DNA of 64,000 nucleotides from Escherichia phage vB_EQ1. Of the stretch, positions 51,229-53,033 are shown one piece after another. The notes beneath the pieces were generated by a model that was not told where the DNA came from, did no database searches, and was given only the letters and a program-made list of their open reading frames with translations. How positions within the stretch are numbered: position 1 is the first letter of the stretch; each line of letters starts with the position of its first letter. The position numbers were made by a program, and so were the translations under genes. The stretch lies in sequence record PQ516281. The stretch is one strand, 5' to 3'.

Positions 51229-51429
51229 TCAGTGTTGATTGTAAACGGCTTTTTCTACGCTTTTAACGTAATTGGTATAGTCTTCCTGTTCGTACGAGTG
51301 TAAGGCTAAGAACAGAGCTAATAATTCATTATAGACTAAGGCCTCACGCTCACGTTCGGCCTCTACTACGTTCTGAAGATTATGACTCATATCGTTCCTT
51401 ATAACTATCAATGTAGTCCTGTATGTCAA
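51229..51429 (-). CDS. small hypothetical protein
   Basis: ORF track; overlaps upstream gene. Confidence 0.35.
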   Translation of the reverse strand: MTYRTTLIVIRNDMSHNLQNVVEAEREREALVYNELLALFLALHSYEQEDYTNYVKSVEKAVYNQH

Positions 51430-51679
51430 AGAATGTCATTTCATATTCTAGGGCATTAAGAGCCCGTTCTTCAGTATAGTCAGAACCAAAGACGATAGTG
51501 ATTTCACCAGGCTTCATGTGATTGAAATCAACACTAAAAGGAATACGAGAACATACTTCGTCTGCCATATCTACGATAACACTACGACACACTTCTCGGT
51601 TAACCTGATAAAGCTCTGCAAGTTCTTCACATCGAATAACAAGTTCAGTGGCAGGATTTTCTTTGATTTTAGTAAGCAT
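51380..51679 (-). CDS. hypothetical protein in the arn region (possible Arn anti-restriction protein)
   Basis: Start set at internal Met (MLTKIKENPATE…), about 99 aa; position between asiA and motA as T4 arn; identity not verified. Confidence 0.35.
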   Translation of the reverse strand: MLTKIKENPATELVIRCEELAELYQVNREVCRSVIVDMADEVCSRIPFSVDFNHMKPGEITIVFGSDYTEERALNALEYEMTFFDIQDYIDSYKERYES

Positions 51680-51762
51680 AGTCTTTACCCTTATGTTTTT
51701 GTTTACGTTTAGATTGAAGTTCTGATTTCTTTTTGTCCTTATGGACGGAAGCCTTATTGAAA

Positions 51763-51981
51763 TCATGTTTTGCTACAAGATTGTTCATAATGCTTTATAA
51801 CCTCGTTTAAACATTTACTAGTGAAAGAAAACTTTTTAGCCACAGAACATTCGATAATGTGCTCTTTCAAATCTTTAGAGTCAGTATAACCCATCTCAGT
51901 AATAAAGTGGCGAATTAAAGCTTTATTCTTATCATTAACAGAATTAAAATAATCTGCTTTAGAATCAATTATTCTCATCAT
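51763..51981 (-). CDS. small hypothetical protein
   Basis: ORF track. Confidence 0.4.
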   Translation of the reverse strand: MMRIIDSKADYFNSVNDKNKALIRHFITEMGYTDSKDLKEHIIECSVAKKFSFTSKCLNEVIKHYEQSCSKT

Positions 51982-52246
51982 CTAATTTCCTTAATTGATA
52001 TTGCAACGAGCTAATAATTTCTTCGTTCATTTTAATATACATGTCACGCAAGAAAGGTTTTAACCCATCACGAATAATTGCTAACGTATCACCTTTACAT
52101 AAATTAACCAAATAAGGATGGTCTAAAGCATCCCAACCAGGCTGATTAGCATACATACCATAATTTTCTTCCATCATAGCATTCAGGCGTTTGATATGAT
52201 TAATGTGTGCTTCAATAGCATCAATCTGGAGTTGTTTAAGATTCAT
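51965..52246 (-). CDS. small hypothetical protein
   Basis: ORF track. Confidence 0.4.
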   Translation of the reverse strand: MNLKQLQIDAIEAHINHIKRLNAMMEENYGMYANQPGWDALDHPYLVNLCKGDTLAIIRDGLKPFLRDMYIKMNEEIISSLQYQLRKLDDENN

Positions 52247-52707
52247 TAGTAAAGATCCTCAGAGTAAAGTTCTTTTTCATTACCACCACGTTCAATACGT
52301 ACTTGTCCAGCGTAAGTTGCAATAATCATTGCTTCTTCACGTGTCCAGTAATTAGAGTATTGATCAATAAAGCCTTGGTCGTCGCCACAAACTTGCTGCG
52401 AGACTAATTGAGGACCAACTATATCAAGTACTTCAGCCATATCTTTAGAGTAATGACGAGCACCTGGAATAATAAGAGTTCGTCCATCTTTTAATTTAAA
52501 ACGATTAGCTGCACAGACAATTCGTCGTTGATACTTTTGGTTTTCATCCCAATACAGAGTCTGCCAACAGATTTCAGGAACTTCATCTAAAACATTTTGT
52601 TCTGTATATTCACCGCCGTAAGAAGCTAATTTAGCAGCCAGACTTTCCGGAGTCTCACGCGACAAAGCTTTATCTAACAGAGCTAAACGTTCTTTAAAAG
52701 TTTTCAT
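52246..52707 (-). CDS. hypothetical protein (153 aa)
   Basis: ORF track; conserved-looking block RIVCAANRF…[12 protein letters not shown]; function unassigned. Confidence 0.45.
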
Positions 52708-53033
52708 TTAAACCATCCTTTAATACGTTGCCAAATAGATTTTTGTGCTTGTTTATTTACACCAATCGAACGAATAACCGGTTGTGACTGCTGATATTCT
52801 TTATAATCTTCTTTATAGATTTCGTAAGCTGCATCAACAAATGAACTGATCGCTGCCATGTAGTTTTTACGAAGGCCAAATGGCGCGTCATTATTTTCAC
52901 GAATAACCGTATATTGGCCTGCTTTAATCTTTACAATTGTCCCTAAATAAGCCCCGTGGTACCAAATATCCCATCCTTCTTGAGTAGGTTCTGCACATTT
53001 ACGAAGTTCGTTAATAATATTCAGCTTATTCAT
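52704..53033 (-). CDS. hypothetical protein (motA.1-region)
   Basis: ORF track. Confidence 0.45.

Follow-up and report, generated by a model that had tools for sequence, protein, structure and literature searches.

What a run of small, tightly packed genes between asiA and motA does for a T-even phage is the question raised by positions 51,229 to 53,033 (minus strand) of a 64,000-nucleotide stretch of DNA from Escherichia phage vB_EQ1 (sequence record PQ516281), the whole of which is called the window here. A preliminary description of the interval had listed six small early open reading frames (ORFs) with unassigned functions and had pointed to anti-restriction and host takeover. By sequence comparison, the interval is the T4 asiA.1-arn-arn.1-arn.2-arn.3-arn.4 cluster in its Mosigvirus version, the T-even 'arn operon'. 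It comprises seven genes, and its likeliest role as a cluster, which we consider probable, is host takeover together with counter-defence. At the level of the locus there is nothing new, this being the long-known T4 arn cluster that is annotated in hundreds of genomes.

Between 50900 and 53700 the sequence shows 100% identity to Escherichia phage MRostami-2023e and, in a megablast search, 97-99% identity to many other genomes of the genus Mosigvirus, among them moskry, APCEc01 and JK45; the window is assigned to a Mosigvirus genome, that is, an RB69-like, T4-like member of the T-even phages. On its map, gp37, gp38 and the holin gene t lie on the plus strand and asiA, the interval, motA, a 71-aa ORF and the topoisomerase gene 52 on the minus strand, an arrangement equal to that of T4 from t to gene 52. 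Read on the minus strand from the motA side, the gene order of the interval is arn.4, arn.3, arn.2, arn.1, a 39-aa gene of the DUF7230 family, arn and asiA.1. The features are as follows.

50910..51182, minus strand: asiA, at the downstream end of the cluster (Pfam AsiA, 2.4e-32; 73% identical to T4 AsiA).
51229..51390, minus strand: asiA.1 orthologue, 53 aa (phrog_5245, 2e-30; BLAST to T4 AsiA.1, E=1e-3).
51380..51679, minus strand: arn, predicted divergent allele, 99 aa (iterated search, hhalign and fold match to 3WX4).
51669..51788, minus strand: DUF7230 gene, 39 aa, basic product (Pfam PF23876, phrog_1359).
51763..51981, minus strand: arn.1 orthologue, 72 aa (74% identity with T4 Arn.1 along its 43 annotated aa; phrog_4452, 1e-39, over the full length).
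51965..52246, minus strand: arn.2 orthologue, 93 aa (40% identical to T4 Arn.2, E=4e-20; phrog_1844, 9e-42).
52246..52707, minus strand: arn.3, 153 aa (80% identical to T4 Arn.3, E=4e-91; phrog_839, 9e-72).
52249..52578, minus strand: arn.3 core domain, residues 44-153 (motifs RIVCAANRF, PGARH, DQGFID, TREEA and LYSEDLY).
52612..52707, minus strand: arn.3 N-terminal module, residues 1-32, two predicted helices (homology to the CmdA N-terminus).
52704..53033, minus strand: arn.4 orthologue, 109 aa (76% identical to the 68-aa T4 Arn.4; phrog_1594, 6e-53).
53044..53676, minus strand: motA, upstream and in the same direction (Pfam MotA_activ, 2.4e-39, and MotCF, 2e-8; 51% identical to T4 MotA).
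53714..53741, minus strand: sigma-70-like promoter candidate upstream of motA (TTTACT-16 nt-TG-TATTAT, from a consensus scan only).

All six minus-strand ORFs listed earlier (51229-51429, 51380-51679 or 51766, 51763-51981, 51965-52246, 52246-52707 and 52704-53033) were found in their places. Each matched a PHROG family with E-values from 2e-30 to 9e-72 and related genomes have annotations for them too, so that the ORFs of the interval are regarded as real genes and not chance frames. Five are plain orthologues of named T4 genes (asiA.1 and arn.1-arn.4). The count itself was one short, the 39-aa gene at 51669-51788 having been overlooked. The earlier equation of the interval with the T4 asiA-motA 'arn' region agrees with both the T4 map and BLAST orthology, whereas the placing of motA.1 here was mistaken: T4 motA.1 sits beyond the interval, flanked by motA and gene 52, and no ORF of the interval had a BLAST match to T4 MotA.1. 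At the corresponding place the window carries the 71-aa ORF (53780-53995, minus strand; phrog_6200), which is unrelated to MotA.1 and is annotated in some Mosigvirus records only. Searches of the six ORFs against Pfam, NCBIfam and PDB sequences returned nothing beyond the flanking AsiA and MotA. The T4 orthologues, which might have turned out to be characterised proteins with unrelated roles, are themselves uncharacterised.

The packing of the genes bears on their expression. A GAGGA sequence follows the motA stop and precedes the arn.4 ATG; arn.4 and arn.3 overlap by ATGA, arn.3 and arn.2 by TAATG, and arn.2 and arn.1 by 17 nt, while the overlap of arn with the next gene reads ATGAGTCATAA. 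Such start/stop overlaps resemble those of a translationally coupled operon. In phage T2, arn.4-arn.3-arn.2-arn.1-arn has been described as one transcript (bioRxiv 10.64898/2026.06.19.733364), and because of the gene packing and these T2 data we infer that the genes of the window are co-transcribed. The comparative map, drawn from 78 IMG/VR loci fetched via the Arn.3 alignment, showed about 40 T4-like phages to share a backbone, MotA - Arn.4 - Arn.3 - Arn.2 - (Arn.1) - DUF7230 - (Arn) - (AsiA.1) - AsiA, that is interrupted by variable inserts. On one IMG/VR contig (L023), the arn.4/arn.3/arn.2 segment is locally duplicated.

Arn is the one gene of the cluster with an anti-defence mechanism supported by the literature; the other six are without one. 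Published work presents the protein as a DNA mimic by which McrBC and H-NS are inhibited (Ho et al., 2014, as cited in PMC12871103), and the preprint on T2 names it as the inhibitor of McrBC whose gene stands last on the arn transcript (bioRxiv 10.64898/2026.06.19.733364). It also blocks PUA-Cal-HAD, and a single substitution (N70S) switches this activity of T4 Arn on or off (PMC12871103). In the preliminary description, 51380-51679 was called arn by position, and this call was borne out by profile and predicted fold even though BLAST of the ORF against T4 Arn gave no match and the identity between the two is about 14%. A homology search with the 99-aa ORF returned six clusters only, all at least 82% identical, and the family appears narrow. 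Proteins at the arn map position in other genera are acidic, 88-99 aa long, and share a G.F.IV strand in the middle and the motif [YF][DE][IL].DY at the C-terminus. With each of three seeds (the 99-aa ORF, T4 Arn and an intermediate from a Klebsiella phage), jackhmmer on the local ORF set gave the identical 26 proteins from 26 loci, and all 26 loci share the same map position, after the DUF7230 gene and arn.1 and before asiA.1 and asiA. When profiles of two sub-families were built independently, hhalign aligned them end to end over 83 columns (P=1.2e-5, probability 81%), the best of 30 column-shuffled controls reaching P=0.047.

An AlphaFold2 model of the 99-aa protein, built from seven Mosigvirus-type sequences only (predicted local distance difference test, pLDDT, 84), had T4 Arn itself as its top Foldseek match among 350,542 PDB chains (3WX4; TM-scores 0.66/0.67 over 90 columns, probability 1.00), with the next-best match at a TM-score of 0.31. 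The protein is also acidic (isoelectric point 4.37, against 4.55 for T4 Arn, with 21 D+E in 99 residues), a figure that describes total charge and not its spatial pattern. We conclude that the 99-aa ORF encodes a member of the Arn family that is predicted to share the Arn fold, and the BASEL authors likewise label this allele 'Arn' in Bas38, Bas42, Bas46 and Bas47. If so, the evidence shows how far a DNA mimic can diverge with its fold kept. Three other calls at this locus were set aside: a match of the ORF to the PP7 coat protein (a single chain, E=0.62) was treated as chance; the 128-aa ORF 51380-51766 (minus strand) is an over-extended arn call whose N-terminal part reads the DUF7230 gene off-frame; and the 121-aa coding sequence (CDS) of Klebsiella phage Roth80 (L006 1517-1882) is over-extended for the same reason.

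The allele may have kept the Arn fold and been retargeted, from McrBC to another DNA-binding defence protein or to H-NS. This is a tentative proposal, less likely than not. It would fit the low identity to T4 Arn and the effect of N70S, which alone toggles T4 Arn against PUA-Cal-HAD; single substitutions shift the target range of Arn, which is consistent with the extreme divergence of this allele. The Mosigvirus-type allele is also found in two Tequatroviruses, Bas38 (L096 8354-8653) and Bas42 (L098 2610-2924), which points to mosaic exchange of arn as a cassette between genera, and the hypermodification of Mosigvirus DNA differs as well. Against a change of target stand the conserved acidic charge and map position.

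A lead was also obtained for Arn.3. The preliminary description had singled out a conserved-looking RIVCAANRF...PGARH block in the 153-aa ORF that it could not place. The block is indeed conserved (residues 62-70 and 81-85) and can now be placed as the core of T4 Arn.3, a protein that is itself functionally unplaced. Across 42 diverse Arn.3 homologues, R61, A66, A67, R84, H85, Q111, G112, F113, D115, R123 and Q135 are invariant, and I63, V64, N68, R69 and P81 nearly so; all invariant columns, as well as the family motifs PGxRHYS, DQGFID, TREEA and LYSEDLY, are present in the protein of the window. The family match to phrog_839 (9e-72) was computed here, while PF26092 is a precomputed label only. 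In the structural model, residues 44-153 form a confidently folded domain that ends in ...SEDLY. Relatives of this core in a viral structure library are uncharacterised proteins of many unrelated phages, and weak matches (E ~0.02) were obtained to domains of 'large polyvalent proteins'. Fusions of the core and of the N-terminal module were uninformative except for one with DUF551. The core is a phage-only domain, and from its set of invariant residues, charged and polar, it may hold an active site or a pocket for binding.

The N-terminus of Arn.3 is a module of its own. The model places two helices at residues 4-16 and 20-29, and this part of the protein matches positions 1-30 of the PADLOC model PD-T4-9_B (E=2.4e-8). 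PD-T4-9 is the CmdTAC system of a toxin, an antitoxin and a chaperone; it is carried by a P2-like prophage and protects E. coli specifically from Tevenvirinae, and its toxin, CmdT, ADP-ribosylates mRNA (PMC9519451, PMC11618068). CmdA, the antitoxin, has been described with two paired helices at its N-terminus (PMC11618068). When 1.8 billion representative proteins were searched with a profile of the module, 32 were returned; of these, P0143 (77 aa) and P0144 (81 aa) match PD-T4-9_B along the entire model (positions 1-77). In BLASTP, Arn.3 is 53% identical to P0143 over residues 1-32 (E=8e-10) and 60% identical to P0144 over residues 1-30. P0143 is encoded in a P2-like prophage (L091) between a 189-aa PD-T4-9_A (304 bits) and a 130-aa SecB-like PD-T4-9_C (196 bits), in an operon of 1214 nt, the length listed for the ECOR22 system, i.e., a complete CmdT-CmdA-CmdC set. 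The first CmdA-like matches examined, P0133-P0137, were not in CmdTAC operons and were discarded. Residues 1-32 of Arn.3 are, as judged from these alignments, homologous to the N-terminal helix pair of CmdA, a relationship that is new here and that gives an experimental lead for a family previously without any functional lead.

The module is present in 22 of the 78 Arn.3 homologues, all of them T-even-like, with other N-termini elsewhere. Searched as DNA, the 5' end of arn.3 had no match in E. coli genomes, so that there was no recent DNA-level transfer of the module; tblastn of the module against plasmids returned nothing, and a scan of GTDB genomes with it returned no confirmed relative. The module also heads, or sits inside, many other phage proteins with unrelated C-terminal parts. 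Some 75-aa proteins of unrelated phages (L007 369-596 and L008 1106-1333), encoded beside the lysis cassette, join the CmdA-like module to a different 40-residue C-terminal part, which points to a widely shuffled phage N-terminal unit. One Arn.3 homologue of 203 aa (P0006) carries two CmdA-like modules in tandem.

Two further explanations of Arn.3 have to be weighed against these data. According to the first, which is possible and on the unlikely side, the core would be a self-contained binder of small molecules or nucleotides, or an enzyme, for instance a sponge for a defence signal, with a function unconnected to CmdTAC, and the helices at the N-terminus would be a generic exchangeable module for oligomerisation or docking. 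The core indeed stands without the module in 56 of the 78 homologues, occurs in many unrelated large phages and has no conserved neighbour gene across 38 non-T4-like loci; the module, for its part, is joined to many different C-terminal parts. Among the invariant residues, polar or charged ones prevail (R61, R84, H85, D115, R123, Q111 and Q135). This explanation is weakened in that no fold or sequence relative of known function was found beyond the weak matches to 'large polyvalent proteins', and in that no ligand was predicted.

According to the second, Arn.3 would be a phage surrogate antitoxin, a degron-free copy of the CmdA N-terminus (or a decoy for whatever that N-terminus binds), directed against CmdT-type systems; we judge this improbable. 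Just as doubtful is the mechanism that would go with it, in which the helix pair of Arn.3 would imitate the stretch of CmdA in contact with CmdT, the mRNA ADP-ribosyltransferase, and Arn.3, lacking the chaperone-addiction tail and the degron, would stay on CmdT after the degradation of CmdA and so block abortive infection. In favour are the identity of 53-60% between the two proteins in alignments that both start at residue 1, the place of the compared CmdA in a complete CmdTAC operon, the specific action of CmdTAC on Tevenvirinae (PMC11618068) and, among Arn.3 proteins, the confinement of the module to T-even-like ones.

The alleles of the module could be compared with published efficiencies of plating (EOPs) on cmdTAC+ cells, taken from the source data for BASEL phages Bas35 to Bas46. 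The allele table covers six phages (T4, Bas35, Bas38, Bas42, Bas44 and Bas46) and leaves out Bas36, 37, 39, 40, 41, 43 and 45. Both escapers, Bas35 (EOP 0.85) and Bas38 (EOP 0.32), carry the CmdA-like allele MKTF[KE]ERLE..., which is identical to CmdA at 15 of 30 positions. The restricted phages T4, Bas42 and Bas44 (EOP of Bas44, 1e-4) carry the allele MNPFINRLKMLNVPL..., with 11/30 identical positions and a proline inside helix 1. This distribution speaks for a surrogate antitoxin, while Bas46 speaks against it: this Mosigvirus has a CmdA-like allele (17/30, as in the window) and is nevertheless restricted 3x10^4-fold, so the allele is not sufficient for escape from CmdTAC. The association of allele and escape over the six phages is not significant (one-sided Fisher 0.2), the escape mutants of T4 map to alt.-3 and not to arn.3, the part of CmdA that contacts CmdT is not stated in PMC11618068, and a module that heads many unrelated phage proteins does not require specificity for CmdT. 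If the idea were true, T-even phages would carry a surrogate antitoxin of their own, and the CmdTAC variants that a phage escapes would depend on its allele of the module.

The seventh gene, between arn.1 and arn, encodes the 39-aa product MNNLVAKHDFNKASVHKDKKKSELQSKRKQKHKGKDYAY (51669-51788, minus strand), which matches Pfam PF23876 (DUF7230) over the whole model length with 49.3 bits, the gathering threshold being 27, and phrog_1359 with 4e-22. Across genera no other DNA of the asiA-motA region is as well conserved as its stretch, which is found at 72-81% identity in phages of Proteus, Serratia and Klebsiella. Annotations of the gene exist for Proteus phage PM2 and Serratia phage 4S, and it was present in 33 of about 40 MotA-AsiA loci. 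In T4 the copy is intact and yet unannotated (NC_000866 161580-161699, complement; L003 1581-1700), so that the absence of a DUF7230 gene from the T4 reference annotation is a new lead. Among 13 distinct gapless copies, variable columns at codon positions 1, 2 and 3 number 11, 9 and 35, and codon differences in the DUF7230 frame are 882 synonymous against 460 non-synonymous, compared with 88/1232 and 51/1232-1248 in the other frames. The wobble pattern and a synonymous excess specific to this frame argue for a real gene under purifying selection. That its product is an ArfA-like ribosome-rescue or ribosome-binding peptide is very improbable: the protein is small and very basic, and across genera no gene of the cluster is better conserved than its own, but its likeness to the C-terminal tail of ArfA is confined to a low-complexity, lysine-rich V.K.KK...RK.KH stretch and was rejected by a search with a profile of 13 members against all PDB chains, which at E<=10 contained no ArfA chain and no ribosome factor, and Pfam reports DUF7230 only.

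The remaining genes differ mainly in how their T4 counterparts have been drawn. For the first ORF, the preliminary description had chosen a TTG start at 51429 (51229-51429); the start is most likely the ATG at 51390, which overlaps the arn stop and gives a 53-aa product beginning MSHNLQNVVEAE, with the N-terminus of T4 AsiA.1 (MSHNLQ here, MSHNLE in T4), and the 162-nt CDS is annotated likewise in Mosigvirus records. An iterated search from this asiA.1 recovered all 26 proteins seeded from T4 AsiA.1. Across genera, conservation is limited to an N-terminal motif of about 20 residues, MSHNLENV.E.QR, the C-terminal halves being unrelated. The family alignments of Arn.1, Arn.2 and Arn.4 are well conserved; that of Arn.1 has 25 invariant columns, including YFNS, E.C and C.L.E.I.HY, and Arn.4 has a conserved C-terminal tail, ..WQ[RK]IKGWFK. 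PDB profile searches returned nothing for Arn.1 and Arn.4 and nothing significant for Arn.2, and none of the three had a Pfam, NCBIfam or PADLOC relative above noise. T4 Arn.4 (68 aa; L003 2628-2834) is without the conserved N-terminal 41 residues, and since its relatives are 106-136 aa long, it is an N-terminally truncated copy.

The T4 annotation of Arn.1 may be short as well. In T2 the 3' end of the arn.2 mRNA was reported to pair with the host small RNA ArcZ, and the 70-nt arn.2-arn.1 'intergenic region' of T2/T4 was proposed as an ArcZ-controlled RNase E entry site (bioRxiv 10.64898/2026.06.19.733364). In T4 this spacer holds an open frame that begins at a TTG preceded by GAAGGTG, a good Shine-Dalgarno sequence (L003 1675-1893), and it encodes the conserved N-terminal half of Arn.1. 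Compared with the window, same, synonymous and non-synonymous codons number 12/8/8 in the spacer and 18/13/12 in the annotated half. The T4 spacer thus evolves like coding sequence, and T4 Arn.1 is probably 72 aa long, not 43. The coding nature of this spacer is a new lead that bears on the RNase E/ArcZ model.

We therefore return to the arn operon as a whole, for which host takeover and counter-defence is the explanation preferred here. The seven genes would be transcribed together with motA or just after it, early in infection. Arn would serve as an acidic, DNA-mimicking decoy that binds host McrBC, H-NS and PUA-Cal-HAD and keeps them off the phage DNA. Arn.3 would be a two-module accessory protein, with a phage-specific C-terminal domain of 110 residues that may hold a pocket for a ligand or partner and, in the T-even phages of E. 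coli, an exchangeable two-helix N-terminal module that may act as a handle for docking to other proteins. The earlier suggestion that the region is one of anti-defence and host takeover thus stands on the literature for Arn and is a proposal for the other genes. The MotA-box promoter pattern occurs nowhere between 50900 and 54200 and hence nowhere within the cluster. In the whole window it was found 31 times, about twice the 16 in shuffles. Just upstream of gene 52, at 55536-55560 on the minus strand, TGCTTTTCATTTCAGATGTTATAAT matches a MotA-dependent middle promoter well, in both the MotA box and the -10 element.

Several observations weigh against this explanation. Arn.1, Arn.2, Arn.3, Arn.4, AsiA.1 and the DUF7230 protein have no demonstrated function anywhere; the functions of arn.1-arn.4 are stated to be unknown in the June 2026 preprint on T2 (bioRxiv 10.64898/2026.06.19.733364), and DUF7230, equally without a demonstrated function, is not mentioned in the searchable literature. 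The pocket suggested for Arn.3 comes from residue conservation only, and its core has neither a solved fold relative nor a relative of known function. For Arn, the narrowest sub-families fail to align when taken alone (hhalign, P=0.024), so that the link of the 99-aa protein to the family depends on intermediates, and the Foldseek E-value of the match to 3WX4 is only 0.012. Mosigvirus DNA carries arabinosyl-hydroxymethylcytosine (arabinosyl-hmC) and not glucosyl-hmC (PMC8594841), and McrBC is no more than a candidate target of this allele. Finally, sigma-70-like sites are no more frequent in the region than in shuffles. Apart from the cluster, repeated His-rich units were seen in the C-terminus of the long tail fibre gp37, at 49400-49600 on the plus strand.

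Compared with known systems, the locus is closest to the T4 cluster (NC_000866 161163-162833), to which it corresponds in its position between asiA and motA, strand and gene order, in Arn.1-Arn.4 that are 40-80% identical and in a 39-aa gene, unannotated in T4, that both carry. It differs from T4 in an arn allele not recognisable by BLAST, in AsiA.1, which shares the N-terminal motif only, in the start of Arn.1 (ATG here, TTG in T4), in the length of Arn.4 (109 aa here against the truncated 68 aa of T4) and in the allele of the Arn.3 module, which lacks the helix-1 proline of T4. Between the 39-aa protein and the Pfam DUF7230/phrog_1359 family no difference was seen, the protein matching the whole family model. 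The 99-aa protein is like T4 Arn (3WX4) in predicted fold, length, acidity, C-terminal [YF][DE]I.DY motif and map position, and unlike it in sequence, at the level of identity given above. Arn.3, lastly, resembles CmdA in the first 30-32 residues, the helix pair, where the two are 53-60% identical. Beyond them, CmdA continues into an unstructured chaperone-addiction tail that ends in a degron, whereas Arn.3, matching PD-T4-9_B at positions 1-30 only, continues into its folded domain of 110 residues; and CmdA is encoded between CmdT and the SecB-like CmdC, whereas the neighbours of Arn.3 are arn.4 and arn.2.

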